A stretch of DNA of 64,000 nt from an uncultured delta proteobacterium (GTDB lineage: Bacteria; Desulfobacterota; Desulfobacteria; Desulfobacterales; JAFDCJ01): positions 32,001-96,000 of the forward strand of contig CAVYNY010000001.1 of assembly GCA_963769935.1 (NCBI GenBank), in the 5' to 3' direction. Of this stretch, positions 4,562 through 60,030 are shown one piece after another; position 1 is the first letter of the stretch, and each line of letters starts with the position of its first letter. The notes under the pieces were generated by a model. It was not told where the DNA came from, made no database searches, and worked only from the letters and a program-made list of their open reading frames with translations. Both the position numbers and the translations under genes were made by a program.

Positions 4562-4873
4562 AAAACTCCAAGCATCAAAATACAAACCCCAAACAAATCC
4601 CAATGACCTAAATTAAAAATTCCAAACAGATAATCCGTTTATCGCTTGGCCCGAAGGCATAATCCCCAGCAAACCAGGGGGGTGAAGGGATGCGACGCAA
4701 TTGTAGTGAGTGTTTTGGTCATTGAAAATTGAGATTTACCTGCCCTGTTAAATCATCTTGCAAGGATTAACGGAATAGGTCAATAATGTGATCTTCATAA
4801 CTCAGACCGATGCACCCTCAGCCGAATAATTTAACAGGGTAAATAATTTGGTGCTTGGGATTTGGAATTTTTT
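4562..4873. repeat. Intergenic element with inverted degenerate heptamer arms (AAATCCC/AAATTCC type) and a nested palindromic insert
   Basis: Left arm 4562-4629 (..aaacaaatcccaatgacctaaattaaaaattccaaacag); right arm 4711-4738 plus 4843-4873 (taatttggtgcttgggatttggaatttt); same family as 12143-12210 and 15571-15786. Confidence 0.75.
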
Positions 4874-4935
4874 CGTCTTACATAACCTTCTGAGGCAACT
4901 GAACCCAGGACCCAGTACCCTGACCCGTTGCAAGT

Positions 4936-7900
4936 CTAGCGCAACTTTATTTCCCGATAAGGCAACCCCAGCGACTGTGCCAGGTCCATCAGGGCCTTTT
5001 CCAGAGTCACTTCTTCCCCGCGACTGTTTTTCACTTTAATGAGCTTATCCGCCACCACAAAAATCTGGATTTTGTGCGGATCGAGGTATTCTTCCGCCAG
5101 CCGGCGCAGATCGTCTCTATCGGCCGTGAAAAATGCATCCTGGATTTTATCCAGCGTGTCAAGGGGCTCTTGACGCATGTAATATCGGCCGTAAACATTT
5201 ACCAGATCCGCCGGGGTGTCCACGTTAAAAACAAAGCTGTTTAATGCATCCAGCCTTTTTTGTTCAAGCTCATCTTGCGGGACATCCCGGCCCAGCAATT
5301 TCATAATGTTGAGCGTCTCTTCCAGGGCCGGCACGGTTTTATCACCTTTGCAGCCGATATAGCCGATGAGAACACCGGCCGACCACTTGTATGTCTCATA
5401 AAAAGCGGCGGAGTAAACCAGGCCGAGATCATCGCGCAAACGGGTATACATCATGGAATCGTTGCCGCCGAAAATGTGCATCAGCAAGTTGATTTTCCAG
5501 TAGTCCGGCTGCCGGCGATTAACGCTGGGCAGGCTCAGCGCAATCTGAGACTGCACCTGACCGGGCTTGGGAATCAGGGCCAACACCGGCGGTGTTGGCC
5601 CGGGATCAGGCAGCTTCCGCTGCGGCGCCGGTGTCTGGGGCAAGGCTTTAAAAAGCTGCTCTAATCCCGTTAGGGCTTCCTGCCTATCGATATCGCCGGC
5701 TATAGCGGCGACCATGTTGGACGGCACAAAATATGTATGCAGAAATTGCTTAAGATCCTCGCCGGTAATTGCCGGAATGGTTTTAAGCGCAGATAGAGGA
5801 TCGCGACCGTACGGATGGCCCTGGAAGTGCCAGATATCCCTTTCGCGCGCGGCCACCGACTGGGCATCTTCTCCCTGCCGTTCAAGGCCGGTCATTTCCT
5901 GAGCTTTGACGACCGCCAACACCCGGGAATCAAATGCGGGCCGGGTCAAAATTTCCTGCAATATGCGCAAGCCCGCCTGCCAGTCTTTTTTGAGCACCGA
6001 TAACTGAATGGCCGTGTCTTCCTCCCCGCCTTCAATGCTGATCCGAATGGCATTTTCATCAAGCAACCGCGCCAGCTCAGCCGGTGCGTGGGATGCGGTT
6101 CCGCCCAGGACGAGGCTGCCGTTCAGCAAATCGATCAAACCGCTCCTGGAATCAGGCACATCAACCGAACCGGCCTTGACCAATAAGGTTAAATCCACCA
6201 CCGGCAGCTCCCTGTCCGGCAAATAAAAGACTCTGCTGCCGCCGATAGGCAGGTCTTCGGCGGCGGGGTATTCGATTTTCTGGGGATGACGCTGAAAAGA
6301 CAGCGGATGTTTCCAGCCGACGGGCGTCGGATATTGGGAAATGTTGGTAAAATCAGGCGGACGTTCCATTTTGGCGGATCTGCTGCCGGCAATTGAACGA
6401 ACCTCCGAATAATTCTCGGGGGGTCGTTCCGGCTGTCCCCCGGGAATGACATACACGCTGGTTTGATTGTCCGTTTGAATGTACTTGTTGGCGGCCTGAA
6501 GGATATCCTCGGGCGTGATGCTTGCAATGTTCTCCAGATAACGCAGCAGGTAGCGCCAACCCACCTGAACCTCGAGCGTGGCCAGGGTGCCGGCCAGGCT
6601 TTCGTTGCTGCGCATGCCGTCAATAAAGTCGCGCTGGTTGAGCTTCTTAATACGCTGAAGCTCGCCGGCGGAAACCGGCTCGGTTTTAATTTTCTCGACT
6701 TCCGCTAAAAGCAGCCCTTCCAGTTCCTGACAGGCCTTAAGGTACGCCCGGCGCTTTTCTGCATCGCTCACCCCTTCTTTCCCGGTGATCTCCGGCTGAT
6801 TGGGCGACCCGCCCAGAATGATCATTCCGCCGTAGCGGTTGTCGGGGTTATAAGACCAGGCCACCTGGGCCAGTCCTTTGTTGGTGATATTTTGGGTCAG
6901 GCGGGCGCTGAGGCCATGGCTCAAGATCATGGTCATGGCGTCCAGAGCATAAAAATCCCTGGTATCCATGGGGGCAGCGTGGAAACCGATCCTAACCAGA
7001 GGCGTGCGGGCGCCTTTCAAGTAGCGGATGCTTTGTCGCGGACCCTTCTGCACCGGTTCCTCGGTGACATTTTCAGAGGCGCGCTTACCGGCCGGATAGC
7101 GTTCGAAGTAGATTTCAGCAAACCGGCGGGCCCTCTCCAGTGAGACATCACCCACCAGAACACAGACGGCATTCGTGGGATTATAATAGGTCTTATGGAA
7201 CGCGGCGGCATCCTGTGTATTGAATTTTTCCATATCGGATTTCCAGCCGATGGTCGGATTGCGATAGGGGTGGGCGCTGTAAGCTGTCGCGTCAAGATCC
7301 AGCCAGGCCGCGCCGTTGGGGTCGTTGATATAGCGAAACGCCCATTCCCGCTGGACGACTTCTTTTTCGACGTAAAACTCGCGCCAGGCCGGTTCGAACA
7401 CCTGTTCGCTAACAATTGAAAACCACTGCTCCAACATGTCGGAGGGCACGGAAGCGACATACTGCGTCTGGTCCTTGGTGGTGAATGCGTTGACGCCCAC
7501 CGCACCATTTTGGCCGAGCTGGGAAGAAAACACCTGGGGAATATATATTTTTTGCACCTCCAGCCGCAGTTCATTCATTTCGGCCGTCTTTTTCGCGATC
7601 AAGTCCTGATCGGGGTTTCGTTTGCTCTGTTCCGCGAGCACGACCTGGTAAGCGGCCTCGATGCGGGCCTGCAGCTGTTCATCTTTTTTGTAGTCCAGCG
7701 ACCCGAAATTTTTGGTGCCTTTAAACATCATGTGCTCCAGCAGATGGGCGATGCCGGTTTTGCCGGTTTCCTCGAGCGCCGAGCCCGCACGAATCGCCAG
7801 ACGAACGGCAACCTGAGGCGTTGCCGGCCGTTCGACCACCAGAAACAGCATACCGTTTTTAAGCTTAAAATGCTGGACGTCGATGTTGAGATCATAAGCT

Positions 7901-7977: not shown

Positions 7978-7993
7978 TAAAAAAGCCTCCTGA

Positions 7994-12033: not shown

Positions 12034-12142
12034 TTAATCCAAATTGATCCGCTCTGGAAAATATTCCATTCAAGGTTGTTGACTGTTATTTGATAACTGA
12101 AGAAATTTGCTAACTCAAAGGTCCGGCGGGTTAATCAAACAA

Positions 12143-12670
12143 AAAATTCCAAATAACAAATCCCAAATAACAAACAAATCACAATTACCAAAATTCCAAA
12201 TCCCAAACCTTTGAACCCTTATATGAAACTACATCTCACACAGAGCGCTCAGAGGTCACAGAGGTAAGGGTTGGCAGCCGCCTGCGGCGAAAGAAAAATA
12301 TTCTCCGCGGTCTCTGTGAGCTCTAACGAAGTGGGCGTGATAGTAAATCCAACTGTGTCCGAATTCCCAAAAGTTTCTTTCTCGATTAATCTGGCCGTCT
12401 TTTTGGCCAGCGGCCCGGCTCGTGTGAAACTTCATTAAATTCCATGCCATTTTTAGGATTGAGCTAATGGCGGGTGGGAGTGGTTTTTAACCACGATTAC
12501 AGATGTTGACCCGACCGAGTTGATCGCGGTTAAAAACCGCTCCCACGAGGTTCATAAACTGTTAGGAAGTTCAAAAGCGGAGTCTTTTGACTATGAGCTA
12601 TCAGCTTTGAGCTTTTTTATCTGACCCCTGAAACCTTTACCCTTTCACCTTTCACCTTTCACCTTTACCT
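12143..12670. repeat. Stack of several repeat types between convergent genes (heptamer arm, CACAGAG nonamer inverted pair, REP-like palindromes, CCTTTCA heptamer run)
   Basis: aaattccaaataacaaatcccaaataacaaac (12143-); cacagagcgctcagaggtcacagag..ctctgtgagctct (12238-12324); ctggccgtctttttggccag (12391-12410); (cctttca)n at 12635-12670. Confidence 0.75.
12474..12546. repeat. Inverted REP doublet (REPIN-like), GTGGGAG-headed
   Basis: GTGGGAGTGGTTTTTAACCACGAT (12474-12497) and ATCGCGGTTAAAAACCGCTCCCAC (12523-12546) are reverse complements at 22/24 positions; each unit is itself a hairpin. Confidence 0.75.
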
Positions 12671-13308
12671 TAACCTTCGTATACAACGGCCAGAATGGTT
12701 GCCCGGCCGCTCTTGGCCGCAATATGATGGGGTATGGTAGACAGGTAGTAGGCGCTGTCCCCCGGTTCCAGTTGGAATTTATCGTCACCGATTTCCAGCG
12801 CAACCTCACCGTCCAGCACGAAAATGAATTCCTCGCCTTCATGCACCGAAATCTCCTTTTCAGGGTCCTCCTCAAGCCTGACGATCAAGGCCTCCATATG
12901 ACGGCCCTTAACATCAGGGGCCAGGCTTTTGTAAGTGTAAACCTGTTTTTGACCTTTCCTGGATGTCGATCGGGAAACAGTCCGGCGCTCATTCTTTCTG
13001 GTGATCGAATAGAGCTTGTCGCCGATGCCTGAGACCAATCTGCCGAAAGCACTGTCCAGGGCCTTGGATAATTTGATCACGGTACCCAGTTGGGGCTGCG
13101 CTTCATTTTTTTCAAGACTCGCTAAAAAGCCCACCTCAAATCCGGTCAAGCGGGATAATTCTTCCAGGGAAAGCCCCTTTTCCTCCCTTATTTTGCGAAT
13201 GCGCACACCGATGTCTTCCATGCCTCTGCGGGGCTCGGCCGGTATCTCGCCGGTTAAATCCTCAAAAAAATCAAAGTGAACAAAAGTTCTGCGACTTTTT
13301 TCTTCCAT
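12670..13308 (-). CDS. XRE-family HTH transcriptional regulator with C-terminal cupin domain
   Basis: IGVRIRKIREEKGLSLEELSRLTG HTH; cupin HEGEEFIFVLDG..LEPGDSAYYLSTIPH. Confidence 0.92.
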   Translation of the reverse strand: MEEKSRRTFVHFDFFEDLTGEIPAEPRRGMEDIGVRIRKIREEKGLSLEELSRLTGFEVGFLASLEKNEAQPQLGTVIKLSKALDSAFGRLVSGIGDKLYSITRKNERRTVSRSTSRKGQKQVYTYKSLAPDVKGRHMEALIVRLEEDPEKEISVHEGEEFIFVLDGEVALEIGDDKFQLEPGDSAYYLSTIPHHIAAKSGRATILAVVYEG

Positions 13309-15570: not shown

Positions 15571-15786
15571 AAATTCCAAATAACAAATCACAAATAACAA
15601 ACAAATTCCAATGACCTAAATTCGAAATCCCAAACAGATATCTGACAATGTACAATGAACCCAAAGTAGACAGGCTTCTCAGAAATAATGCAGACCAATC
15701 CGATGCCAAAGGAACATTTTGTCATTGGATTTTGAGATTTAGAATTTACTTGGAATTTGGTGCTTGAAATTTGGAATTTTAGAATT
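15571..15786. repeat. Complete inverted heptamer-arm element (about 215 bp)
   Basis: Left arm 15571-15637 aaattccaaataacaaatcacaaataacaaacaaattccaatgacc; right arm 15717-15786 ttttgtcattggattttgagatttagaatttacttggaatttggtgcttgaaatttggaattttagaatt; unique core of about 80 bp. Confidence 0.8.
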
Positions 15787-16805: not shown

Positions 16806-16956
16806 AATCGCGTTTCTTCGATTTTGGATTTCTGATTTCGAATTTTGGCTTAACGATCTAGCGTATCGTCAACGACTTTCAACGCGATACCCTATGCCTT
16901 TTTAACTTACACCCCGGGTTTGCCCCGTTGTTACGGATCAGGCTACTGATAGCATT

Positions 16957-18309: not shown

Positions 18310-18330
18310 GATATTTACCTGTCTTTTAAA

Positions 18331-18410
18331 CCGTTGGCCCGTTGACCCGTTGATCCGTTAGCCCGTTAACCCGTTAGAACTGAAGCAAACCGGCTAACCG
18401 GCACACCGGA
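18331..18410. repeat. Octamer tandem repeat (CCGTTRRC) followed by AACCGG-type inverted units, upstream of purB
   Basis: ccgttggc ccgttgac ccgttgat ccgttagc ccgttaac ccgttag, then aaccggct aaccggca caccgga. Confidence 0.75.
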
Positions 18411-18547
18411 TAGTTGCCGGGGAGTATAGGCGAAGCCGGCCATGGTGTCAAGACGGGGAACCTCGCAACCCAGGGCATTGTCCACGGTAGCTCTAAATTC
18501 GATTCGCGGGGTTCTGCCAACGAAAATCCGCCCGAGACAGTAAAAAG

Positions 18548-19895: not shown

Positions 19896-20026
19896 AAAAC
19901 GACTACCGGAAGTGAACGGTTCATCGGTCAGGGGTCAGGGAGCAAGGGTTAGAAAATATTGAAATAATTCGTGGTTGTTCGTGTCAATTCGTGGTTAATA
20001 AATTTTTAAAGGGCTGAAATCATATT

Positions 20027-20902
20027 TTAGGGGTTATTGTCCCGTTTTTGATGCAGGTGTTGCCGCAGCAGCTGCACGACCTCCTGATTACCCTTTTGAG
20101 ATGCCGTATGCAAAGGCGTCACACCGTTATTATTTCTGGCATTGACATCCGCGCCCGCGGCAATGAGCAGGGCGACCGTTTCCCTGTCACCGGCCAGCGC
20201 AGCCGCATGCAAAGGGGTCATGCCCTCCGCGTTTTTAACATTGACATCCGCCCCCCTGGCAATGAGCAATGCGACGGTCTCGCTGCGTCCGGCCAAAGCC
20301 GCCGCATGCAGGGGGGTCACCCCGTCTTCATCTCTGGCATTGATATCGGCGCCCTTATCGATAAGCAATGCAACGACCTCATTGTTGCCGCTCCACGCTG
20401 CTGCATGCAACGGCGTCAAGCCCTGTACATCACCGCTATTGACATCCGCGCCCTTGGCGATCAGCATTGCAGCGACCTCCAGATAGCCTCTTACCGCCGC
20501 AATATGCAAGGGCTTTTCTCCAAGTTCATCCGCAACATTTACGTCGGCACCGGCCTCAAGGAGCGCTTTGACCTGGTCGATATCATTTAATTTCACGGCT
20601 TCGCCGAGCGACAGTTTGACAGGCGGTTCTTTGGCATTCAACCGGAATTTGGTCAGCTCATCTAATTGCCCGGTCTCCGGCATGCCATCGTCTTGTTGAA
20701 AGCTCTTTACTGCTTCGGCGGTCTTCTTTCCCCAAACTCCATCGGGTTTTCCGACATCGTATCCCAGTTCGTTCAGTTTTTTCTGCGCATTATAAACCGC
20801 ATCGTCATAGCAGACCGCAGTTTCAATTCCCAAAAGCACTGCACTGCAAATGATCACCAGAATTATTATCCAAAAATTTCTCAATTGCCTGAAATTTTGC
20901 AT
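20027..20902 (-). CDS. Secreted protein with peptidoglycan-binding domain and about 6 ankyrin repeats
   Basis: Hydrophobic N-terminus; AQKKLNELGYDVGKPDGVWGKKTAEAVKSFQ..TGQLD (PG_binding_1); repeated G.TPLHAAA..G..ETVALLI..GADVN (99-bp DNA repeats). Confidence 0.9.
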   Translation of the reverse strand: MQNFRQLRNFWIIILVIICSAVLLGIETAVCYDDAVYNAQKKLNELGYDVGKPDGVWGKKTAEAVKSFQQDDGMPETGQLDELTKFRLNAKEPPVKLSLGEAVKLNDIDQVKALLEAGADVNVADELGEKPLHIAAVRGYLEVAAMLIAKGADVNSGDVQGLTPLHAAAWSGNNEVVALLIDKGADINARDEDGVTPLHAAALAGRSETVALLIARGADVNVKNAEGMTPLHAAALAGDRETVALLIAAGADVNARNNNGVTPLHTASQKGNQEVVQLLRQHLHQKRDNNP

Positions 20903-23534: not shown

Positions 23535-23653
23535 TTACGGCTGCTTCGGTTTCATTTCCGCCGTTTTGATAGTGATGCCGAAAAACTTAATAAGTTCCTT
23601 CATCTTCTTTCATTCAATGTTCAATGTTGGACGTTCGAGGTTCGATGTTCATT
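23535..23653 (-). mobile_element. Heptamer arm plus 22-codon remnant resembling a four-helix-bundle protein C-terminus (putative non-autonomous element)
   Basis: Minus strand aatgaacatcgaacctcgaacgtccaacattgaacattgaatg, followed by ORF 23603-23535 MKELIKFFGITIKTAEMKPKQP. Confidence 0.45.
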
Positions 23654-26733: not shown

Positions 26734-28934
26734 TTTGTTCTCCTTTCAGTTGCAAATTTCAATCGGGCTTGCAATCCCGTGTAGCGGCGCTGCGTTTTGT
26801 TGTTGCTCACCCCGATGGCCAACGCTTTTTTGCTGCCCACGATGACGACCAGCCGTTTGCCGCGGGTGACGGCCGTATAAAGCAGGTTGCGCTGCAGGAG
26901 GATATAGTGCTGGGTAACAAGGGGTATAATCACAGCCGGATATTCGGATCCCTGGGATTTATGCACGGACACGGCATAAGCCGGCACGATTTCGTCCAGA
27001 TCGCTGAAGTCGTACCGCACCTGGCGGCCGTCGAAAGTGATCAGGACTTCCCGCTCTTCCCCGGCAATGGAAGTAATTCGACCGATATCCCCGTTAAATA
27101 CTTCCTTGTCATAGTTGTTTCTGATCTGCATAACTTTATCGTTGATCCGGAAGGTGCGATCGCCGCGCGTGATCCCGCCCTCGCCGGGGTTTAAAACCGC
27201 CTGCAGCTGCTGATTCAGGTTGCCGGCACCGACGACGCCCCGGTGCATGGGGGTCAATATCTGGATCTCGTCAACCGGGTCCAGACCAAAGCGCCGGGGG
27301 ATGCGCTTTTTACTCAGCTCCAGGATAATCTCCAGCACTTTTTCAGGATCCTCCTGCTCGATAAAATAAAAATCATTGCGCGGGTCGGTTGAATCGGCGG
27401 TGTTAAGGGAGGGCAAAATGCCTTCGTTGATTTTATGGGCATTGACAATGATGTTGCTGGTCATGGCCTGGCGAAAAATCTTATCCAGGGTCACCACCGG
27501 CACGGCAGCCGATGCAATGATATCATTGAGAACATTTCCGGCGCCCACTGAAGGCAGCTGGTTCACATCGCCGACCAGAATAAAAGTGGCAAAAGGCGGG
27601 ACCGCCCGCAGCAGGAAGTACATCAGGATGGTATCGATCATCGACGCCTCATCGATAACCAGCACATCACAGTCGAGCGGTTTGTCCTCATTACGCTGAA
27701 AGCCGCCTTTCTGCGGGCTGTATTCCAGCAACCGGTGAATTGTTTTGGCTTCCAGGCCGGTGGTCTCCCCCATCCGTTTGGCGGCCCGACCGGTGGGTGC
27801 GGCCAGCATCATGCGGGCTTTGATTCGGGCGTAGATCTTCAGAACTGCGTTGATGATGGTCGTTTTTCCGGTACCCGGGCCGCCGGTAATCACCATGACT
27901 TTGTTTTCAATGGCCCGCCGCACGGCCTCAATCTGCTTGCCGGCCAAGGTGATGGCAAGCTGGCCCTGAACCCAGTCAATGGCCTTTTGAGAGTCAATAT
28001 CCCGCAGGGATTTGGGAGCGTCGATCAGGCTTTTTACACTCTGGGCAATGCCCGTTTCACACAGGTGGAACCGGCTTAAAAACACAGCTTTATGATTTTC
28101 CGGCAACGCATCGCGGCCGTGATTCAAATCTTCGATGACGATCTTCTGATTATGCGCCAGCGCCTCCAGGGACTTAACCACGGCCTCGCGCTCGACCGCG
28201 AGGATTTCACAGCTTTTTAAAATCAGCGACTCATAGGGGAAGTAAACATGGCCCTCGTCGGACAGTTGATTTAAGACATAAAGAATCCCGGCTTCAACCC
28301 GGATGCCGGCGTCTTTGGCAATACCCAGTTTGGCCGCGATCTGGTCGGCGGTGACAAATCCGATGCCGAAGATATCCGTCGCCAGCCGATACGGATTTTC
28401 CTTGACCACGGCAATGGAACGGCTGCCGTAGTGTTTGAAGATTTTAGCGGCATATCCGGAGCCGACGCCGTGGCTTTGCAAAAAAAGCATGACATCCCGG
28501 ATGTCTCTTTGCGCATCCCAGGCGGTTGCAATCATGCCGATTCGTTTTTTGCCGATGCCCGCCACTTCGGCCAGCCGCTGGATATCGCTTTCGATAATCT
28601 CCAGCGTCTCTTTCCCGAATGTATCCACAATGCGGCCGGCCATCACGGGGCCGAGTCCTTTGATCAGACCCGAGCCCAGATATTTGCGGATACCGTAGAC
28701 AGTCGCCGGAACCTCGGTGCGATATTCGAGTACCTTAAACTGCTCGCCGAATTTGGGGTGGTGGGACCACTCCCCTTGCATGTCAAGAATTTCACCGGGC
28801 ATGGGCGCCATCAGCGTTCCCACCACCGTTACAAGATCGCGCCGTCCGGGCACCTTCACCTTGGCGATGGTAAAACTGTTTTCTTCGTTGGTGAACGTTA
28901 TGCGTTCGATCTGGCCGGTGAGTTCAGTTGGCAT
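26730..28934 (-). CDS. recD2: ATP-dependent RecD2 (RecD/TraA family) DNA helicase
   Basis: HhH GIGKKR, ITGGPGTGKTT, APTGRAAKR, DEASM, GDVNQLPSVG, HKSQGSEY, YTAVTRGK. Confidence 0.95.
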   Translation of the reverse strand: MPTELTGQIERITFTNEENSFTIAKVKVPGRRDLVTVVGTLMAPMPGEILDMQGEWSHHPKFGEQFKVLEYRTEVPATVYGIRKYLGSGLIKGLGPVMAGRIVDTFGKETLEIIESDIQRLAEVAGIGKKRIGMIATAWDAQRDIRDVMLFLQSHGVGSGYAAKIFKHYGSRSIAVVKENPYRLATDIFGIGFVTADQIAAKLGIAKDAGIRVEAGILYVLNQLSDEGHVYFPYESLILKSCEILAVEREAVVKSLEALAHNQKIVIEDLNHGRDALPENHKAVFLSRFHLCETGIAQSVKSLIDAPKSLRDIDSQKAIDWVQGQLAITLAGKQIEAVRRAIENKVMVITGGPGTGKTTIINAVLKIYARIKARMMLAAPTGRAAKRMGETTGLEAKTIHRLLEYSPQKGGFQRNEDKPLDCDVLVIDEASMIDTILMYFLLRAVPPFATFILVGDVNQLPSVGAGNVLNDIIASAAVPVVTLDKIFRQAMTSNIIVNAHKINEGILPSLNTADSTDPRNDFYFIEQEDPEKVLEIILELSKKRIPRRFGLDPVDEIQILTPMHRGVVGAGNLNQQLQAVLNPGEGGITRGDRTFRINDKVMQIRNNYDKEVFNGDIGRITSIAGEEREVLITFDGRQVRYDFSDLDEIVPAYAVSVHKSQGSEYPAVIIPLVTQHYILLQRNLLYTAVTRGKRLVVIVGSKKALAIGVSNNKTQRRYTGLQARLKFATERRTK

Positions 28935-28940
28935 GGCTTA

Positions 28941-29122
28941 TTAAGCTCTTAAGTTGGTAAGCTGTTAAGCTGATGAGCTCACAAGAATGAGAATAGCTGA
29001 TAAGTTCATGAACCGGCAAGTTCATAGGTTGTGAACGGATCTTATTTTAGCTTTCCTGCTAACGAACTTACCAGCTTATCAGCTCATCAGCTCATCAGCT
29101 TACTAGCTTACCAGCTCATCAA
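28941..29122. repeat. Inverted octamer-arm element (AGCTYAYC / GRTRAGCT)
   Basis: Left arm taagttggtaagctgttaagctgatgagct..gctgataagtt; right arm aacttaccagcttatcagctcatcagctcatcagcttactagcttaccagctcatcaa, which runs into the tsaA stop. Confidence 0.8.
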
Positions 29123-29532: not shown

Positions 29533-29550
29533 TGAATGCCTTTCTGGATG

Positions 29551-29853
29551 GAGGTTCGAAGGTTAAAGGCTAAAGGTTAAAGGTCCGGGCGAATTAATGC
29601 CGGGTAATTAGTCCTTAGCGCCTGAATTTTTCAACACCCATCCGCCTTGCGCCGTGAGCCGTGCGCCATGCGCCAGTTTAAACTCCCGGCCCGCACCCCG
29701 CAACAATCTCGCTTCGTCTCGCTCCCTTACACCCTGCTCTAGGCGCTATGCCCTCTGCAATTGAATCCCGTAACTCGCATCCCGCATCGCGCGGTCGTTT
29801 GAGAATTTTTTAAAACAGATAGAATTCCTTCATTCGACATTCGTCATTTCATT
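29551..29853. repeat. Cluster of short degenerate heptamer runs
   Basis: aaggttaaaggctaaaggttaaagg; ccttgcgccgtgagccgtgcgccatgcgcc; cccgtaactcgcatcccgcatc; cattcgacattcgtcatttcatt. Confidence 0.6.
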
Positions 29854-29870
29854 AGTCCCCGCACCGCGGC

Positions 29871-31826
<1,956 letters not shown>

Positions 31827-35293: not shown

Positions 35294-35340
35294 TTGATAT
35301 TAAATGTTATTTCTTTTCATTTTAGGAAAAAATTTTTTCA

Positions 35341-35420
35341 TCACGAAAACACGAAAATCTAGAAAGCACGAAATTTTTCTTATCTCCTTTTCGTGTCTTC
35401 GTCCTTTCGTGCTTTCGTGA
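35341..35420. repeat. Inverted CACGAAA-arm element inside the fdh operon
   Basis: tcacgaaaacacgaaa..agcacgaaa versus tttcgtgtcttcgtcctttcgtgctttcgtga. Confidence 0.75.
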
Positions 35421-35514
35421 TTAATTTCTTTTTTAGCTCTCCGCCTCCGGCGGATCCGAGTTAGGCGCTTCCTCCCTTTTGGAATGATGGAAAGCTGGAA
35501 AAACGATTTTTAGA

Positions 35515-38244: not shown

Positions 38245-38256
38245 CCCGCAAGGGCT

Positions 38257-38372
38257 TGAATTGAAAATTGAAGATTGCAAATTGTATAATTGTAACTGTC
38301 GCTTTGCTCCTCTTTTTTAAAATCGAAAAAATTCCACTAATATTCAATATTGAATCGAAAATATTCAATCAT
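38257..38372. repeat. Inverted heptamer-arm element (AAAATTG / CAATATT) between convergent fdhA and glyA
   Basis: gaattgaaaattgaagattgcaaattgtataattg ... aatattcaatattgaatcgaaaatattcaatc. Confidence 0.6.
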
Positions 38373-38382
38373 TTAGTACCCC

Positions 38383-39657
38383 CTACCCGGCCGGGATGGG
38401 GAATTCTGTACAGAGTTGTTCGACTTTTTGTTTAATGTTTTTTTGCAATTCCCAGTTATTTGGTTCTTGGATAATGGAAGCTACCCAATTGCCGATCTTG
38501 ACCATTTCTTTCATTTTCATTCCACGGGTGCTAACGGCAGGCGTGCCAATTCTGATCCCGGATGGTTTAAAGGGTGAACTCGGATCATAGGGGATCGGGT
38601 TGGCGTTGGTGACGATACCTGCATTTTCTAATGCGACGGCCGCGGGTTTTCCCAAGCCGATACCGAAAGGCAGCAAATTGATCAATATCATATGATTGTC
38701 GGTCCCACCGGTGACAAGCTTGATTCCCCTGCTCGTTAGCTCACCAGCCAGGGCTATTGCATTTTCCGTAATATTTTTAGTATAGGTTTTGAATTCTTCC
38801 GAAAGTGCTTCCTTCAATGCAACGGCCTTGGCGGCCGTCACATGATTATGCGGGCCGCCCTGGCTGCCCGGGAAAACTGCCCGGTCAATTTGCTTTGCAT
38901 ATTTTTTCCTGCAAAGAATAATTGCACCGCGCGGGCCGCGAAGTGTTTTGTGGGTTGTCGTCATGGCCACATCGCAAAACGGAAATGGACTTGGGTGAAC
39001 GCCGCCGGCAATCAAACCGGCGACATGACTGATGTCCGCAAAATGTAGTGCTCCGATCTCTTCGGCAATTTTCTGAAAGGCTCCAAAATCGATTTCACGT
39101 GGATACGCTGTTAGCCCGGATACGATCATTTTGGGTCTGTGCGTAAGCGCTAACCGGCGGACGTCATCCATATCGATTCTTTCGGAATTTTTATTTACGC
39201 CATAATTGACGGCTTTGTAGGTTTTACCCGAAAAATTGACAGGATTACCATGGGTTAGATGGCCGCCGCAGGAAAGGTCGAAGCCGATAAACGTATCACC
39301 CGGATCCAAAAATGCCATATAAACCGCCGCGTTGGCTGGGCTCCCGGAATATGGCTGCACATTGGCATGCTCGGCGCCAAAAAGCTTTTTAGCACGCTCG
39401 ATGGCAATGATCTCTATGGCATCAACGATGGCATTGCCCTGGTAGTATCGCTGCCGCGGGTAGCCTTCACTGTATTTATTCGTCAGGGCAGATGCCGTTG
39501 CCTCCAGAACGGAAGGACTTGCAAAGTTTTCACTGGCAATGAGGTTGATGGTCAATTGCTGTCGCAATTTCTCCTTCTCGAGCAACGAGTTGATTTCCGG
39601 ATCAGTTTTTTCTAATTCCATTTTCTCCAACTCCAACGAATTCTTCACTAAAGTCAT
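38383..39657 (-). CDS. glyA: Serine hydroxymethyltransferase
   Basis: LIASEN, NKYSEGYP, NVQPYSGSPAN, GGHLTHG, TTTHKTLRGPRG, GGTDNH, SGIRIGTP. Confidence 0.97.
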   Translation of the reverse strand: MTLVKNSLELEKMELEKTDPEINSLLEKEKLRQQLTINLIASENFASPSVLEATASALTNKYSEGYPRQRYYQGNAIVDAIEIIAIERAKKLFGAEHANVQPYSGSPANAAVYMAFLDPGDTFIGFDLSCGGHLTHGNPVNFSGKTYKAVNYGVNKNSERIDMDDVRRLALTHRPKMIVSGLTAYPREIDFGAFQKIAEEIGALHFADISHVAGLIAGGVHPSPFPFCDVAMTTTHKTLRGPRGAIILCRKKYAKQIDRAVFPGSQGGPHNHVTAAKAVALKEALSEEFKTYTKNITENAIALAGELTSRGIKLVTGGTDNHMILINLLPFGIGLGKPAAVALENAGIVTNANPIPYDPSSPFKPSGIRIGTPAVSTRGMKMKEMVKIGNWVASIIQEPNNWELQKNIKQKVEQLCTEFPIPAG

Positions 39658-39687: not shown

Positions 39688-40938
39688 CTAGTGTTTAAAA
39701 CTCCGTTGACCCGTATATACCATCGTCGCCCCGGCTTCGTTGCAGGCCTCGATGGACTGATAGTCATTGCCGGAGCCGCCGGGCTGAATCACGGCCGTAA
39801 TCCCTTCGCGCAGGCCGACGTCCACCCCGTCCCGAAACGGGAAAAACGCATCGCTGACCATGGCCGCGCCGATCAATCCGCCTTTTTCCCGCGCCACCCG
39901 CGCATCGAGCTCCGCCTTTTGCCCGGCGTCTTTTAAATCATTGTAAGGGATGCCCAGACTTTCGAAGCAATAGCGATCGGCCAGTTTACGGTAGGCCTTG
40001 TCCCTGGCAATCTGGGCGACACCGACCCGATCCTGCTCGCCGGTCCCAATGCCGACCGTAACCAGATCCTTGACATAGATAACCGAATTGGAGGTAACGC
40101 CGGATTCCACCAGCCAGCCGAACAGCAGATCCTCGTATTCCTTATCCGTCGGCGCGCGGTTGATTTTATACTGTTGGCCCTTGTATTCGGATTCCGCCGG
40201 TTTGAGCTCGGCTTTGCTGCGGCTGACCGGCACAAAAGACCACTGGGTGATGATACCCCCGTCGATCAGACTTTTAAATTCCACGCAGCGCTGACCGACA
40301 AATGACTGCAGCCGCTCGATGTTTGCGATCTTAATTACCCGCAGATTCTTCTTGGCGGCAAAAACGTCCATCACTCCCGCTTCGTAATCCGGTGCGACCA
40401 CAACTTCGGCATATTGCCCGGTGATGGCCTCCGCGGCGGCCTTGTCCACCGGGCGGTTCAGGGCAATACATCCGCCGAAGGCGGCGACCCGATCGGCCAT
40501 ATTGGCTTTGAGGTAGGCGTCGACCAGGGAATCGGCCAGGGCCACCCCGCACGGATTGTTGTGTTTGACAATGACCGCTGCGGGCTTGTCGGTAAAGTAC
40601 CGCAGGATGTTCAGCGCATTGTCGGCATCGGTTAAGTTGGTTTTGCCGGGATGTTTGCCGGATTGCAGCAATTCGATGTCGGATGCCAGATACCGGCCCG
40701 GTTGAATGGTGTGGGTTTCGCCCAATACCAGGTTGCCGTTGGCCAGCCGGTAAAGGGCGGCCTCCTGTCCCGGATTCTCGCCGTAGCGCAGACCTTTTTG
40801 CACATTGTCGATGGTCCAGGTAACTTTCTCGTAAAAAAGGGTTTGCCGCTGATTTTTATCGACAAAGCTGATCTCCATTCGGGGAGGAAAATGATCATCC
40901 ATGATCGTACGATACATTTTTTTGAGATCTTCGGCCAT
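39688..40938 (-). CDS. purH: AICAR transformylase domain of PurH encoded as a separate gene
   Basis: LRYGENP, VIVKHNNPCGVA, AFGG, GIGTGEQDRV, SDAFFPFRDG, IQPGGS, RSFKH; no IMP cyclohydrolase domain. Confidence 0.85.
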   Translation of the reverse strand: MAEDLKKMYRTIMDDHFPPRMEISFVDKNQRQTLFYEKVTWTIDNVQKGLRYGENPGQEAALYRLANGNLVLGETHTIQPGRYLASDIELLQSGKHPGKTNLTDADNALNILRYFTDKPAAVIVKHNNPCGVALADSLVDAYLKANMADRVAAFGGCIALNRPVDKAAAEAITGQYAEVVVAPDYEAGVMDVFAAKKNLRVIKIANIERLQSFVGQRCVEFKSLIDGGIITQWSFVPVSRSKAELKPAESEYKGQQYKINRAPTDKEYEDLLFGWLVESGVTSNSVIYVKDLVTVGIGTGEQDRVGVAQIARDKAYRKLADRYCFESLGIPYNDLKDAGQKAELDARVAREKGGLIGAAMVSDAFFPFRDGVDVGLREGITAVIQPGGSGNDYQSIEACNEAGATMVYTGQRSFKH

Positions 40939-40959
40939 GCGGATTCTCCTTTGCGCGGG

Positions 40960-41238
40960 ATATTGGAATTTCGGTAATTGGGATATGTTTGGTATTTGAT
41001 TATTCGATATTGGACCTATTTAAATGGGTGTCAGGTGTCAGCGGCGGCGCTGGCAGCCGCAGTTCCCAGTTTAAAAGGAAGTCATTCTGTCTATTTTATA
41101 AAAAAAGCTGAGCGACACGCGGCACACACCCCGCGCAGGTGCCGGCGTTGCGCGAGCGAATCCACCCTTTGAAATTCTGCGGTGTCTTTTAACTATGAGC
41201 TATCAGCTATCAGCTTTTTTATCTGACACCTGAAACCT
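40960..41238. repeat. Composite intergenic repeats between the two purH halves
   Basis: Heptamer arm attggaatttcggtaattgggatatgtttggtatttgattattcgatattgg; ggtgtcaggtgtcag..ctgacacctgaaacc inverted pair; 41179-41238 is 55/60 identical to 12577-12636. Confidence 0.7.
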
Positions 41239-41298
41239 CTAAATAAAGCAACTCGCCCGCATCGACAAAAAGTTGCCGACACGGCACTTAAAAGCGCC

Positions 41299-41970
41299 CT
41301 AGTAGCAACCTGAAACCTCGGCAAACGACCGGGCGCCCAAAAATTCGGCAATGGTACGATCGTAAACGGCGGTGTGCTCGAAAGCCTTTTGCGCCAGGCG
41401 GAAGCGCAGATTTAAAGACAGCGCTCCATTATGGGCTTTCAGTTCGCTGATGATCATGCCGTAATCGCCGGGATCCACTACGGGGGCCACCCGGATAAAA
41501 TTTTTAGCCGCTGCCCGGATCATGCACGGACCGCCGATATCGATATTGCCCCGGGCCTTTTCAACCGTGACATCGGGTTTGGCGATCGTTTCTTTGAATG
41601 GGTAGAGGTTCACGACGACCATGTCGATGGGCACGCTGCCGGTTCGCCTCAGATCATTCTGATGCGCTTCATTGTAAGTTTCGGTGAGTAGCCCGAGATA
41701 GATCTTAAAATCCAGCGTTTTTACCAGACCCCCCTGAGTTTCCGGCTGACCCGTGTAATCGGAAACCTGGCTGAGATGCGAGCCGCTCGAGTCGCCCAGA
41801 ATCTCCTGGAGCCTGGCGTATGTACCGCCGGTGGAAAATATTTTTAAATCCGGATTAACGGCCATAAGCTCCGGTACAAAGGTATCCAAGCCGCTTTTGT
41901 CGGATACGCTCATCAGCACGTGGCGAACGGGTACCAGGTGATCGATTTTCTCAACAATGTTAATAGCCAT
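41299..41970 (-). CDS. IMP cyclohydrolase (MGS-like) domain of PurH encoded as a separate gene
   Basis: LMSVSDKSGL, STGGT, DYTGQPE..GGLVKTL, IDMVVVNLYPF, NIDIGGPCMIRAAAKN, AFEHTAVYD. Confidence 0.85.
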   Translation of the reverse strand: MAINIVEKIDHLVPVRHVLMSVSDKSGLDTFVPELMAVNPDLKIFSTGGTYARLQEILGDSSGSHLSQVSDYTGQPETQGGLVKTLDFKIYLGLLTETYNEAHQNDLRRTGSVPIDMVVVNLYPFKETIAKPDVTVEKARGNIDIGGPCMIRAAAKNFIRVAPVVDPGDYGMIISELKAHNGALSLNLRFRLAQKAFEHTAVYDRTIAEFLGARSFAEVSGCY

Positions 41971-41975
41971 AATTT

Positions 41976-42608
41976 TCACCTCGTTCCTTCGTATTCTTCT
42001 AAAAATCGGTTAAAAAATTCCACCATAATTCGGTGGCGATCGACGGCTAATTTTTGACCTTCACGCGTCAGAATGCGATCCTTTATTTTACCGAGCTTGA
42101 CTTTAAATTCCCGATAGCCGGTGTCGTCGATTGAATAGGGTTCGGTCGCTTCAATATTCGTGTCACCGCTATGGAGCCGGGCTCCCACCTCTCCGGCAAA
42201 GAGAAAGGCACGCGCCACACCCACCGCCCCAATAGCATCGAGCTTGTCGGCATCGAACAATACCCTGGCTTCCGGAGTTCTGGGCCTGTGATGGCCCCGA
42301 TAGCGATGAGACCGAATGCAGTGCAGGACATTTGCTTTTTGGTCCGCCGTCAGGGCCAACTGCTCCAGGATGGCGCCTGCGAGGTGAGCGCCTTTTTCGG
42401 CGTGGCACACTGCTCCGTGGGATTCATCCTGGAAACTGCGGCCGATATCATGCAGGTAGGCCGCCACCAGCAGCACGTCCATATCCACCCCTTCGACACT
42501 GCCGATGCGTTCACACAATCGGCAGACCCTGAGGGTGTGCTCCCAGTTGTGACTGCCTCGGGCGCCCTGAAAGTATTTGCGGGCCATTTGTTCGACTGCG
42601 ATCAGCAT
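41976..42608 (-). CDS. HD-domain metal-dependent phosphohydrolase
   Basis: SHNWEHTLRV, AYLHDIGR, HAEKGA, DADKLDAIGAVGVARAF. Confidence 0.9.
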   Translation of the reverse strand: MLIAVEQMARKYFQGARGSHNWEHTLRVCRLCERIGSVEGVDMDVLLVAAYLHDIGRSFQDESHGAVCHAEKGAHLAGAILEQLALTADQKANVLHCIRSHRYRGHHRPRTPEARVLFDADKLDAIGAVGVARAFLFAGEVGARLHSGDTNIEATEPYSIDDTGYREFKVKLGKIKDRILTREGQKLAVDRHRIMVEFFNRFLEEYEGTR

Positions 42609-43992: not shown

Positions 43993-45058
43993 ATGGTGCT
44001 GCGGGTAAAACGGAATCTGGTATATATCGCTTTCGTGCTTCTTGCGCTGGTTTTATGCGGCTGCGAAACCATGCAATACTACGGCCAGGCAATCCACGGC
44101 CAGTGCAGTATTCCTTTAAAGCGCAGAGCCGATATCGGAAATTATCGCGGATCCCAAATCGCCGGCATTCCTGCGGGAAAGGCTGGCGTTTATTCTGGCG
44201 GTGCGGCAATTTGCCGACAGCGAACTTCACCTTCCCGTAAAAGACAACTACCTCACCTATGTGGACCTGGAGCGGCCTTATGTCGTCTGGAACGTGTTTG
44301 CTGCACCGGAGTTCTCCCTGACGCCGAAAACATGGTGTTACCCTGTGGTGGGATGTGCTTCGTACCGCGGCTATTTCTCGGAACACAATGCACACCAATA
44401 CGCCGCCGGATTGACCGACAGGGGCTATGACGTATATGTGGGCGGCGTGACGGCTTATTCAACGCTGGGCTGGTTTGATGATCCGGTGTTAAGCACCTTC
44501 ATTCAGTATTCCAAGGCCCAATCGGCCGGGCTGATCTTTCACGAACTGGCCCACCAGATTCTTTATGTAAAAGATGATACCGTGTTTAATGAAAGTTTTG
44601 CTACGGCCGTAGAGCAGGAAGGGCTGCGAAGGTGGCAGAAGGCAGCGTCCGACCCGCAAATTTATCGGGAGTATTTAGCCGGGTACCAGCGCCAGGAACA
44701 ATTTGTGCATTTGATCGTACAATACCGTCAGCTGCTCGAAATCCTTTACCGGACCGACGCATCACCATCGGTTAAAAGAGATAAGAAAGCATCCATTTTC
44801 TCGCAGCTTCGCAACGAGTTTGATCGGATGCAGACAAACGAAAAGGGCTTATCCGTCTATGCCGATTGGATCCAGCAAGATTTAAACAATGCTAAAATCG
44901 GCAGCGTGGCTGCCTACCATGATTTAGTGCCGGCATTTCAAAAAATGCTGGCGCAAGACGACGGGGATCTCAAACATTTTTATCAGGCCTGCCGTGAGTT
45001 GGGGCAAAAAAAGAAAGAGGAAAGAGATCGCATTTTAAACGCCTATTTACCTGAGTAA
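43993..45058 (+). pseudogene. Putative zinc aminopeptidase lipoprotein (DUF2265-like) with one frameshift
   Basis: Lipobox VLCG-C ETMQYYGQA in frame 1; continues EPISEIIADP..RQFA..WCYPVVGCASYRGYF..IFHELAHQ..FNESFA in frame 2; extra base near 44124. Confidence 0.78.
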
Positions 45059-47083: not shown

Positions 47084-47197
47084 AGCCACGAATTGAAACG
47101 AATAACCAACGAATAACCACGAATTATGGCAATCGGCGAAAGCAGGGTCATTTAACGCAAAATTTAATTTCGATAAAATTCGTGTTAATTCGTGGCT
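47084..47197. repeat. Inverted ACGAAT nonamer-arm element between exeA and exeB
   Basis: agccacgaattgaaacgaataaccaacgaataaccacgaatt ... aattcgtgttaattcgtggct; a related half element lies at 19965-19997. Confidence 0.75.
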
Positions 47198-52022: not shown

Positions 52023-52030
52023 CATAAACT

Positions 52031-58700: not shown

Positions 58701-59553
58701 AGCGCAAAACTTTTATTATGAGACCTTTAATATAAGGCCCCTGCAGGCTGAAATTGCGTTTCAGCAGGATAAAACGGTTATAGCCGTCACCAAAGCAGAT
58801 GTTTGCGGCCTATCATTGCGGGGATTGGTGAATGTAGCGGACAAGGCATTGGATTTGTATTTTGTTCCGACGCCCGTCGATCATAACCTGGATTCCACCC
58901 TTGCCTGTTTGACCGCTAAAAAGAGTCTGGCTACCGGCACGTACAACCTCAGCGGGGAAATCATGGCAAAAACCAAGCCGGAAGCACTTTCACGCTCTCT
59001 CACCGGTAAGCTGGCTTTTTCAGCCGAAAAAGGCCGCATTTACCGATTCGGTTTGCTGGCTAAGCTCCTGGCTATTTTGAACCTCACCGAAATTTACCGC
59101 GGAAATATTCCGGACCTGGCCGGTGAGGGATTTGCCTACCACAGCATGTCGGCCAGTGCCAAGCTGCAGGGGGGTAAAATTACCATGGAAGACTGTACTA
59201 TTGACGGCGCCTCAATGGGGATTGCCTGCAAGGGCGACATTGATCTGGCCCGCAAAGAGATGGATTTGATTATCCTGGTGGCACCGTTTAAAACCGTTGA
59301 TCGCATTGTGGACATCCTGCCTTTGATCGGCCGCGTTTTAGGGGGCAAACTGATCTCCATCCCGTTTCGGGCCAAAGGCGATCTGGATGATCCTGAAGTG
59401 TATCCGCTGCCGCCGACGGCGGTGGGCTCGGGTCTGCTGGGAATACTGGAACGAACATTGAAACTGCCGCTTACCATAATCCAACCGGTGATTTCGGGCC
59501 TAAAAAACGGCAAGCCCCGGCAACCGACCGTCGAGGGTGAATCGCCCTACTAG
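55741..59553 (+). CDS. AsmA-like (AsmA/YhdP/TamB superfamily) intermembrane protein
   Basis: N-terminal TM anchor; long beta-repeat body; C-terminal G.IDL..MDL..LVAP..DILPLIGRVL..F..KGDLDDPEV. Confidence 0.8.
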   Translation: MPNRKNIISFLTRSLLVFIFLAVVVMVFTPGLINLEMVKKTIKENISSNVGGRITYRNLKLSYFPRPHVVIREAEISLPESYTINIQWMRIYPKIWPLFKGRLQFDYIKLDYADYFMKLPRIQDAAPAQPERRRSWDEMAKAFTEAVRNLPEFKLPDLDLRVNNGRVNLIDPSGQKFMLRELQARYVRSRAGLDFSLQCKSNLWERIDISGLLDPADFKGHGRVQLSGFRPQTLIAYLFPDSALRMTDTRASVNIDFQSDGAGSIQADVIGTMPLLEFNRRSAKLVVKGVRLKGAVRVDGNSARADLTELGLEYPALNTTGTFSYDENLHDIQLALNGSRIDADSVRQAALALLGESETVRAIFEVIRGGRVPWMTVRVRGRTIRDFGLLDNIVIQGRMTRGRIFIPGAKLDLEEVFGDADISNGILKGEKLQARFGKSYGQDGSMALGLNQKLAPFHLDIGVNADLSQLSPVLNRIVADRDFLSELERIKDVAGTAQGKLTLGDDLENLSARVEVTQVQADIRYNRIPYPIKISGGRFFFEANRIAIHNFNAAIGNSSLSQLSATIDWAQTPTLKTISKTAHFDLAELHAWLLSFETFKTSLADIRSLNGMIAAEDLSIRGPMFNPRNWDFQTRGAIGKLTLTSSRLPQTLRIDRGNFTCRGRQLDFSQVDASLGKSSVARVFGNVNWGGKAIVSATSGASLFNLEDINPVFFSDKDLATALKGFRPLTGKLAFDRLTFSGPVSEPTSRQVSFSADVRQLTIHSRRFPGALRINRGQFTWHNNQLDLKNIEAAFGKSTISRLSASYHPDRNAWFELHCGMAQLAAGEIHPFLSSFGELQPVVRDFSTSEGILTLTDFGLSGPFHEPAAWQYDSTGKMQNVLVHSEALTEPVTVNSGTFKLSTETSAGITRRRISIEKAKLTWNDKPLTIAGTLSSSASETLLDISIDADGPEWNQITKFLDYAGRRKTLSDKSGHRRNLRGSIRFSAQNFYYETFNIRPLQAEIAFQQDKTVIAVTKADVCGLSLRGLVNVADKALDLYFVPTPVDHNLDSTLACLTAKKSLATGTYNLSGEIMAKTKPEALSRSLTGKLAFSAEKGRIYRFGLLAKLLAILNLTEIYRGNIPDLAGEGFAYHSMSASAKLQGGKITMEDCTIDGASMGIACKGDIDLARKEMDLIILVAPFKTVDRIVDILPLIGRVLGGKLISIPFRAKGDLDDPEVYPLPPTAVGSGLLGILERTLKLPLTIIQPVISGLKNGKPRQPTVEGESPY

Positions 59554-60030
59554 GGCTGTCTCCTGCACACCGCCGGCCAAAAACGGCGGTCGATTTTTCC
59601 CAACCTTGAAAACCTGGTCCTTGGAGGCCAGGCCGCAGATAATAAGCTTTTCCGTAAATGAATGCCGCGGGGTATTGGCCCGCCCTGGCGCGACGTAATG
59701 AGAATTTACGGCAGATTTGTCCTTTTCAGGAAAAAAAATATCTAAAATTCAATTTAGGTAAAAGGCGGTCTGGGGTGAAGTCAGGATTCAGAATTCGATT
59801 TTCACTGACACCTGAAACCTGAAACCATGAACAGATTTGGCCTATGGCAAAGCCAATATCCTCTGACCTGGCCCACAGGACCAAGTTTGCAACTTTGGAA
59901 TCAAAGCCCGACCTTCCGGGCGAGGGATGATTTTCCCGGTTGACTTTTGCACGAGAGTACACATATTCACTTAAATGAATTTTAGTGATTTCATTTAGTT
60001 ACAATCCACCAACCAAAAAGGAGAATAGCG

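Follow-up and report, generated by a model that had tools for sequence, protein, structure and literature searches.

The DNA analyzed here is a 64-kb stretch (hereafter the window, meaning its full 64,000 nucleotides) from contig CAVYNY010000001.1, positions 32,001 to 96,000, of an uncultured sediment bacterium, a delta proteobacterium of the order Desulfobacterales, whose genome comprises 7.99 Mb in 41 contigs. Its genes, which were named by Pfam, include purB, tsaA, recD2, fdhA, glyA and a split purH, and a number of the spacers between them hold tandem repeats with short units, mostly of 7 or 8 bases. In some spacers such an array is joined by a reverse-complement arm across a short core, which gives a hairpin-like element. 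These arrays and hairpins, which sit in spacers and in three cases within apparent operons, are the subject of this study. A reading of the letters alone, made before our analysis (the sequence-only reading), had placed them close to stop and start codons without damage to genes, and this was correct: the tsaA/recD2, NuoF-like/fdhA and ExeA-like/T2SSB-like spacers all hold elements, and no open reading frame (ORF) is broken.

Short-period arrays in the window and the genome

Tandem Repeats Finder (TRF), run at a score of ≥30, returned 53 rows for the window, including 19 of period 7, nine of period 8 and five of period 9. Compared with 20 dinucleotide-preserving shuffles of the window, there were many more rows of period 7 (shuffle mean 0.6, maximum 3) and of period 8 (mean 1.7, maximum 4), while the five rows of period 9 were indistinguishable from chance (mean 1.5, maximum 5). 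Across the whole genome the rows numbered 186 for period 6, 1553 for period 7, 873 for period 8, 868 for period 9 and 387 for period 10. Genes were delimited with a crude longest-ORF model and no gene caller, which gave 6866 ORFs covering 82% of bases. By this model 1235 of the period-7 rows lay in 1.46 Mb of non-ORF DNA versus 318 in 6.5 Mb of ORF DNA. Intergenic segments defined in the same way (1.45 Mb genome-wide) were compared with five shuffles, and held 1179 rows of period 7 versus 35–42 (about 30-fold), 626 of period 8 versus 38–46 (about 15-fold), 364 of period 9 versus 26–35 and 149 of period 10 versus 48–66. The proposed enrichment of short-period intergenic repeats is thereby confirmed for periods 7 and 8, both of which lie far above the shuffles in the window and in the genome.

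The sequence-only reading had listed 16 intervals with their periods, and TRF found the given period, or its double, in 12 of these. All three period-8 intervals were recovered, as were eight of the ten assigned to period 7, the two missed being 4562–4873 and 40960–41015, the latter without any row at this score. Only one of the three intervals of "about 9" was recovered; 47084–47197 has period 11, and 19965–19997 gave no row at a score of ≥30.

Inverted pairing of the arrays

Neighboring arrays, defined as lying within 600 bp of each other with units matching within one mismatch, were strongly biased toward inverted orientation for period 7 (149 inverted versus 13 direct pairs genome-wide) and period 8 (54 versus 19). 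There was no such bias for period 9 (10 versus 8). Local alignment over distances of up to 2.5 kb (score ≥30) detected an inverted partner for 257 of 1079 period-7 arrays and a direct partner for 61. The cores enclosed by 328 inverted pairs peaked at 50–100 bp. The genome therefore carries a population of tandem repeats of 7 and 8 bases, and fewer of 9, of which roughly a quarter are paired as inverted arms. The statement that many intervals have a reverse-complement arm stands as a genome-wide bias for periods 7 and 8, but within the list only four of 16 intervals folded at z ≤ −4 relative to shuffles (15571–15786, 28941–29122, 35341–35420 and 47084–47197). The remaining ones are solo or decayed arrays. 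Overall, both the repeats and the bias toward inversion are genuine, and the repeats belong to an already known class, that of heptameric simple repeats.

Arrays around four-helix-bundle genes

The genome contains seven matches to the four-helix-bundle family PF05635 (TIGR02436). None is on the window's contig, and the window elements are therefore gene-less. Arrays of period 7–9 were found directly on both sides of all seven genes, compared with a background of 252 of the 6866 ORFs, or 35 of the 1758 ORFs of ≤160 aa. The five PF05635 proteins that were tested all passed the TIGR02436 cut-off, and five of the seven cassettes had inverted arms with scores of 37–54. In one cassette the predicted fold pairs the arms around the ORF (z −7.8, 20 shuffles). 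The build is not confined to this organism. We took top-scoring PF05635 loci, 20 in all, from a further 20 genomes of the order, and arrays lay on both sides of 12 and on at least one side of 18; a flanking inverted repeat with a score of ≥33 was present in 13, and one locus was cut by a contig end. The suggestion in the sequence-only reading that such arms flank TIGR02436 genes was thus well founded, with seven of seven genes flanked here and 12 of 20 loci elsewhere. PF05635 itself was present in 63 of 81 genomes of the order. The density of period 7 and 8 arrays was about 0–28 per 100 kb in samples from 29 genomes of the order versus 26–50 in syntenic samples from the genus. The cassette build is widespread; what characterizes this genus is the bloom of gene-less arrays.

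TIGR02436 was the only gene family consistently enclosed by such arms. A survey of ORFs enclosed by arms of the same unit gave 15, nine of which belong to ordinary families (among them rhodanese, FliJ, NuoE-like, old yellow enzyme, glycosyltransferase, phosphatase and permease) and six to no family. Five small family-less ORFs had no NCBIfam match, and no second cargo family emerged among the 15. When the 252 ORFs with arrays on both sides were compared with one another by BLAST, most proved to be singletons, and no known transposase was found among ORFs enclosed by arms.

A similar association that had been suggested for GxxExxY genes (PF13366) did not hold. The genome has one full gene and one fragment of this family, and no inverted pairs were found at the flanks of the full gene (L064, G000:C8:188300-189300). 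Direct repeats border that gene, one set of 113 nt (97% identical) and another of 72 nt (93%). A 9-nt repeat from the 72-nt stretch recurs about every 250 bp, with one interval of about 760 bp, an arrangement that differs from the periodic-arm elements.

Dispersed unit families

The units are diverse, with 294 canonical heptamers in 1531 arrays, the commonest of which heads 112. Nevertheless, the proposal of a shared architecture with unshared sequence was partly wrong, since units and whole arms recur at many loci. The exact units of five cassette arms were present in 44, 111, 78, 21 and 16 gene-less arrays elsewhere. The 73-nt arm of the element at 15571 had 53 BLAST matches in the genome, on both strands and at 83–96% identity, and these include a non-repeat motif. 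Three more copies of this arm lie on the window's contig, two of them within the window. The 53 dispersed matches indicate that part of the array population consists of dispersed sequence families.

The arms of one cassette have the unit GCTGGAT. A 21-nt pattern of three such units (≤2 mismatches) was sought in 23 genomes of the genus, and had 71 matches in this genome and from 0 to 602 in the 22 others. The reversed pattern, which served as a control, had 0 matches in all 23. Lineage-specific differences in the copy number of this one unit family are large. Relatives of the protein of the GCTGGAT-arm cassette, at 73–85% identity, were found in five other genomes, in one of them as a fragment only, and all five genomes have the pattern (7–602 matches).

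Turnover at orthologous spacers

Ten genomes of the genus yielded RecD2 orthologues (73–80% identity), and the spacer between tsaA and recD2 was filled in different ways among them. In this genome it holds a 188-bp hairpin of 8-mers and in G015 an 8-mer arm pair, while G008 and G018 have only the left 8-mer arm. G002 and G012 have a heptamer arm pair (CAGAAGA) at the same place, and G017 a different heptamer (CGAACAT). The spacer of G011 is 52 bp without repeats, and that of G013 is empty at 10 bp. A RecD2 tree, whose bootstrap support is not fully settled, grouped (G015,(G008,G018)) and (G002,(G017,G012)), and these groupings imply at least three separate occupancy events at this one spacer.

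Syntenic samples of about 45–70 kb from each of four relatives gave a similar picture. G008 and G018 carry a homologous element in the fpg-DUF3786 spacer, of which G013 retains a 58-bp remnant. The ExeA/ExeB-like genes are separated by 162 bp in this genome, compared with 59 bp in G018 and 0 bp in G008, and the NuoF-like/fdhA spacer of G018 carries a different hairpin. The spacer that holds the array at 12136–12207 is 636 bp here versus 102–246 bp in three relatives, and the one with the arrays at 29559–29853 differs in all four. Five genomes each have their own heptamer arm pair in the spacer between the two halves of purH, which is 262–461 bp long in the four relatives. Repeat number therefore varies among relatives at orthologous spacers, as is typical of simple repeats, and the finding of empty and differently filled spacers is what a mobile or selfish origin would lead one to expect.

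The purH gene itself (window 39688–41979, minus strand) consists of two ORFs split within AICARFT (profile positions 1–59 and 63–311), the second of which has its own ribosome-binding site. The split is old and order-wide, as 59 of the 60 genomes with a match had an N-terminal ORF of 212–301 aa. The distance between the halves is 28–203 bp in eight other genera, and the gap contains periodic hairpins in some and a ribosome-binding site only in others. Insertion of repeat hairpins has recurred at the purH spacer.

Public sequencing runs

Parts of window 28500–38400 were present in twenty public runs, three of which are metatranscriptomes of one study. Contigs of two RNA libraries join 28943 directly to 29113, leaving out the 169-bp tsaA-recD2 element, with 5 letters shared at the joint that also belong to the repeat unit. 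The source of this joint is a close relative, with 5 differences in 287 letters and a few per cent elsewhere. One DNA run has the element-bearing form. The joint was not seen in DNA runs X10, X12 and X13, where cover is thin and comes from more distant relatives. In RNA-library contigs of X9 and X11 the center of the hairpin at 35342–35419 gives way to a different sequence of 15 letters. In one RNA-library contig, from a close strain, 33131 is connected to 38103 by 16 letters of different sequence, and the formate-dehydrogenase genes are absent. The replaced center and the missing genes indicate that the RNA-library contigs represent a different strain. The 28943–29113 joint could stem from an element-less strain or from a jump of reverse transcriptase across the hairpin.

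Other joints (18327–18419, 18351–18385, 15634–15754 and 12266–12409) were discarded because of short sides or ambiguous letters between. Depth peaks over repeat bins were also discarded as evidence of expression, as they sum many loci and organisms. The formate-dehydrogenase genes (window 33131–38103) are absent from this place in G017 as well as from the close-strain contig, and the operon thus behaves as an insertable block.

Mismatches in the arms and stop triplets

The sequence-only reading had offered long mRNA hairpins as one explanation of the elements. Selection for an mRNA stem predicts that mismatches read as G·U on the sense strand outnumber those read as A·C. We counted both in 509 periodic-arm hairpins (score ≥30) located between co-directional ORFs. 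Over all arm mismatches there were 1183 G·U versus 1160 A·C, and for isolated mismatches, with two pairs on each side, 217 versus 226 (p 0.70), which is no excess. The same count in 116 terminator-like hairpins without arrays gave 30 G·U versus 12 A·C (p 0.008). Stems from ARAGORN were considered as a positive control and rejected; this is because only pairs that already fit are bracketed, and A·C is impossible. The arms carry no RNA-pairing signature, so that selection for mRNA hairpins is not borne out. Taken with the arm build common to four-helix-bundle cassettes and gene-less hairpins, and with unit families that range from 0 to hundreds of copies between sister species, this narrows the question to a copying process at the DNA level.

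The arrays do show a polarity relative to translation. Of the arrays that start 1–10 nt after an upstream stop codon, 49 had stop triplets in the sense strand alone and 16 in the antisense strand alone (p 5e-5), although TRF boundaries are fuzzy and the stop codon itself may contribute part of this difference. The upstream stop codon was overlapped by 70 of 819 arrays.

Individual elements of the window

The elements of the window are listed in Table 1. The units related to that of the array at 59805–59831, with canonical forms AAACCTG, ACACCTG and AACCCTG, head 43, 56 and 35 arrays genome-wide.

Table 1. Arrays and hairpins in the spacers of the window (z, fold relative to shuffles; C1, the window's contig)
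Positions	Strand	Element	Setting and basis	Further observations
4562..4873		Degenerate copy belonging to the dispersed 'CCAAAT...CCAATGACC' arm family; contains a small nested inverted-repeat insert	Between sensor kinase and M16 peptidase genes	TRF 11-nt row only; z −1.2; 4590–4632 (C1:36590-36632) is a 91% BLAST match to the 15571 arm
12136..12207		Solo period-7/14 array, left arm of the 'CCAAAT...CCAATGACC' family	TRF rows	65 nt (C1:44144-44208) match the 15571 arm at 91%
12239..12324		Short hairpin with arms of a 9-nt unit (CACAGAGGT type)	TRF row 12239–12265; z −1.6	Weak inverted partner at 12312–12324
12586..12671	-	Two solo period-7 arrays	Next to the stop codon of a helix-turn-helix (HTH)-cupin gene; TRF rows, sequence	Units contain stop triplets on the sense strand
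15571..15786	+	Hairpin built from period-7 arms	Between fpg and DUF3786 gene; TRF rows 15577–15601 and 15750–15779; z −4.0
16820..16845		Solo period-7 array	3' of purB; TRF	No partner found
18326..18409		Two abutting period-8 arrays with unlike units	5' of purB; TRF; z −0.3	No inverted partner found
23613..23651		Solo period-7 array	TRF	No partner found
28942..29121	-	Period-8-arm hairpin	Fills the whole tsaA-recD2 spacer; TRF; inverted score 42–44	First unit overlaps the tsaA stop codon; z −6.5 (28941–29122); sense-strand RNA −77.1 kcal/mol, z −7.4
29559..29853		Several period-7 arrays with differing units	tsaA to acetyl-CoA synthetase gene; TRF rows 29559–29584 and 29638–29675	No hairpin; z +1.1
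35342..35419	+	Hairpin with period-8 arms (CACGAAAA type)	NuoF-like gene to fdhA; TRF; z −6.1
38259..38372		Period-7 array and weak complementary stretch	fdhA to glyA; TRF 38259–38284	Inverted score 19; z +0.3
40939..41298	-	Repeat-filled spacer	Separates the split purH halves; TRF rows 41027–41041 and 41193–41215
47084..47197	+	Hairpin with an 11-nt arm unit	Between ExeA-like and T2SSB-like genes; TRF 47097–47124, period 11; z −4.4
59805..59831		Solo period-7 array, CTGAAAC unit family	TRF

Three further features of the window were noted. A 99-bp tandem repeat of 2.8 copies at 20103–20375 lies in an ankyrin-repeat gene, represents ankyrin units and is unrelated to the arrays. A perfect 21-bp tandem duplication at 31942–31983, just 5' of the acetyl-CoA synthetase gene, is a putative regulator binding site. 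The Aminopep (PF10023) ORF at 43993–45058 begins at profile position 43, with an overlapping ORF in another frame upstream, which may reflect a wrongly assigned start or a frameshift; the 285-aa ORF is matched over nearly its whole length in relatives.

Comparison with known repeat and mobile systems

The arrays have much in common with the heptamer repeats of filamentous cyanobacteria, known as short tandemly repeated repetitive (STRR) sequences, and with long simple sequence repeats (LSSR) in general. As in those, head-to-tail units of 5–11 nt are present far above chance and concentrated in non-coding DNA, 7-nt units are the commonest, copies are many, repeat number is variable, and the arrays often lie tens of bases from stops and starts. 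They differ in having hundreds of units, periods 8 and 9 as well as 7, a strong bias for inverted pairs, and the same arms around TIGR02436 genes. GGGNATC repeats are described in Xanthomonas and Nostoc (PMC4692102) and TAACTGA repeats in marine Beggiatoaceae, the latter with one inverted set among 170 (PMC4679880). Citing earlier work, the Beggiatoaceae paper also states that in many bacteria heptamers predominate among long simple repeats, with slippage proposed as their cause (PMC4679880).

The cassettes resemble the ORF-bearing intervening sequences (IVSs) of 23S rRNA in Coxiella and Leptospira, whose S23p protein belongs to PF05635. Both have a small four-helix-bundle ORF within a long stem formed by complementary ends, and both have tandem heptamers 5' of the ORF and a sporadic distribution (PMC4990558). 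That paper describes three tandem heptamers upstream of the S23p ORF in the Coxiella IVS, the first of which is cut by RNase III, and regards the IVS as selfish (PMC4990558). Genes annotated 23S_rRNA_IVP also occur in cas loci, according to another study (PMC3936711). Unlike an IVS, the cassettes here lie between protein genes rather than in rRNA, most window copies have no ORF, and the arms are long tandem arrays; excision by RNase III has been shown for the IVS. Complementary ends of a long stem are present in four window elements and five of the seven cassettes, and the PF05635 ORF is absent from the window elements and present in the seven cassettes elsewhere in the genome. Neither the window copies nor the seven cassettes are inserted in a 23S rRNA helix, as all lie between protein-coding ORFs. 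A literature search whose coverage left out subscription journals found no report linking heptamer arrays to four-helix-bundle cassettes located in the spacers of operons.

Two classes of non-autonomous palindromes also had to be considered. Repetitive extragenic palindromic (REP) sequences and bacterial interspersed mosaic elements (BIMEs), which are associated with a REP-associated tyrosine transposase (RAYT), fill intergenic gaps, including those in operons. Miniature inverted-repeat transposable elements (MITEs) are short, gene-less elements with inverted arms that form dispersed families and undergo lineage-specific bursts. That the elements are REP/BIME-like palindromes moved by a RAYT, which is a transposase of the Y1 type, or belong to the MITEs of some known transposon family, is highly improbable in our view. 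They are indeed palindromic, intergenic, found within operons and members of dispersed families; like MITEs they are short and gene-less, and the paired ones have terminal inverted repeats; and the genome has 11 Y1_Tnp matches. However, none of the 11 Y1_Tnp loci had period 7–9 arrays on both sides, and their flanking inverted-repeat scores were mostly low. The arms are tandem arrays of many units, internally periodic and changing in length, with no single conserved REP consensus, and no transposase-bearing parent or transposase-linked full-length copy was found, nor any target duplication in the one usable pair of arm matches. Two loci (G000:C11:462316-463941 and G000:C17:221555-223181) each combine a reverse-transcriptase match with a match to a Y1 transposase some 700 bp away; the reverse-transcriptase scores are identical, and the arrangement looks like a repeated composite mobile element. 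In all, the genome has ten reverse-transcriptase matches.

Discussion

We hypothesize, with moderate confidence, that the window elements are gene-less members of dispersed, selfish hairpin families that act at the DNA level and are built like the arms of the TIGR02436 cassettes. This is because of their hairpin build, the identity of their units with those of TIGR02436 arms, the turnover at orthologous spacers and the absence of an RNA-pairing signature. In such a process a copy of an element would be inserted into the short gap that separates a stop codon from the start codon following it, and its arms would then grow and shrink through replication slippage. The complementarity of the arms would come from DNA copying, either as an inverted duplicate or by template switching, rather than from selection for an RNA stem. 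Copies would survive where translation is undisturbed, and the arm adjoining the upstream gene would tend to carry stop triplets, which a period of 7 or 8 would put in all three frames. Within operons the elements would be transcribed and folded.

Several of our observations weigh against this hypothesis. The mobile origin proposed in the sequence-only reading is supported by the dispersal of arms, the range of 0–602 copies and the spacer turnover, but no transposase, integrase or target-site duplication was found, and an attempt to align element ends by pairing the BLAST hits of one arm gave a single pair, as the two arms of an element are inexact copies. About three quarters of the arrays have no detectable inverted partner. 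The families of cassette-arm units are not larger than that of a random array (median 45.5 within one mismatch), and across 29 genomes, sampled over 7.6–40 kb, the density of period 7 and 8 arrays showed no relation to the copies of PF05635 per Mb (Spearman 0.17, p 0.39). The bloom of arrays is not accounted for by how many four-helix-bundle genes a genome has, and the coupling between the two is loose. Pattern and protein of the GCTGGAT cassette also part ways in both directions. G015, with 253 pattern matches, and G002, with 70, have no match to the cassette protein at E ≤ 1e-10, absences that are qualified by assemblies that are fragmented and 85–87% complete, while G007, G010 and G012 have the protein at 73–80% identity and yet only 7–14 pattern matches. 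Transversions among the isolated arm mismatches (696) exceed transitions, where simple decay of an exact inverted copy predicts otherwise. The one precise empty form of the tsaA-recD2 spacer close to this strain was seen only in RNA libraries of one study, and all gene positions rest on the crude ORF model.

We regard it as unlikely that the hairpins are instead functional parts of polycistronic mRNAs, that is, RNase III-type processing sites, stabilizers or translational insulators that are kept by selection and pair in multiple registers. Their position exactly between stop and start codons in operons would suit such a role, as would the strong folding of the hairpins (z −4 to −6.5, and −7.4 for the sense strand of the tsaA-recD2 element) and the retention of one element at the same spacer in three species, but sister species have same-site spacers of 10–52 bp that are empty, and unit families swap at one site. 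The stop-triplet polarity does point to some filtering relative to translation, and the cut by RNase III at the first of the three heptamers in Coxiella offers a precedent for processing (PMC4990558). The arms nevertheless lack the excess of G·U that terminator-like hairpins show, most arrays are unpaired, and no Rfam family, including rRNA, matched anywhere in the window.

A history without any movement, in which polymerase slips locally on a seed, often in the region of the stop codon, and template switching at the fork supplies the arms of what is neutral simple-sequence DNA, appears to us rather unlikely. Arms of 60–70 nt that recur 53 times together with a non-repeat motif would not be expected from it, nor would a 21-nt pattern with 602 matches in one genome, none in sisters and none for the reversed control, different unit families at one orthologous spacer, or the same build around all seven members of one gene family. 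Local slippage does agree with the neutral wobble test, with copy numbers that differ among relatives, with the arrays that overlap the upstream stop codon and the richness of nearby arrays in stop triplets, and with the proposal that slippage underlies the heptamers so common among long simple repeats of many bacteria (PMC4679880, citing earlier work). On balance, we favor dispersed selfish hairpin families.

A broader proposal, which is speculative and which we hold to be quite unlikely, is that the TIGR02436 cassettes and the gene-less hairpins form one new class of transposase-less mobile elements that also gave rise to the ORF-bearing IVSs of rRNA. The Avd-like protein would act in trans on the arms, which it would recognize by their periodicity, possibly via an RNA intermediate copied by a reverse transcriptase of the host.

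Such arrays also have consequences for annotation, as they can mimic tRNAs or CRISPR-like repeats. At least one "tRNA" called by ARAGORN in this genome (G000) is built from a heptamer array with units of the GGTTC type and looks false, which indicates that programs searching for RNA genes can be misled by arrays of this kind. The frequent presence of such inserts in split or spaced genes of this lineage is a second caution for annotators.

Heptamer repeats have been known for decades in cyanobacteria, xanthomonads and sulfur bacteria without an accepted origin, and the intervening sequences of rRNA have no known way of spreading. The genome studied here unites both, as the same arm build is found around every one of its four-helix-bundle genes and in hundreds of its gene-less hairpins.

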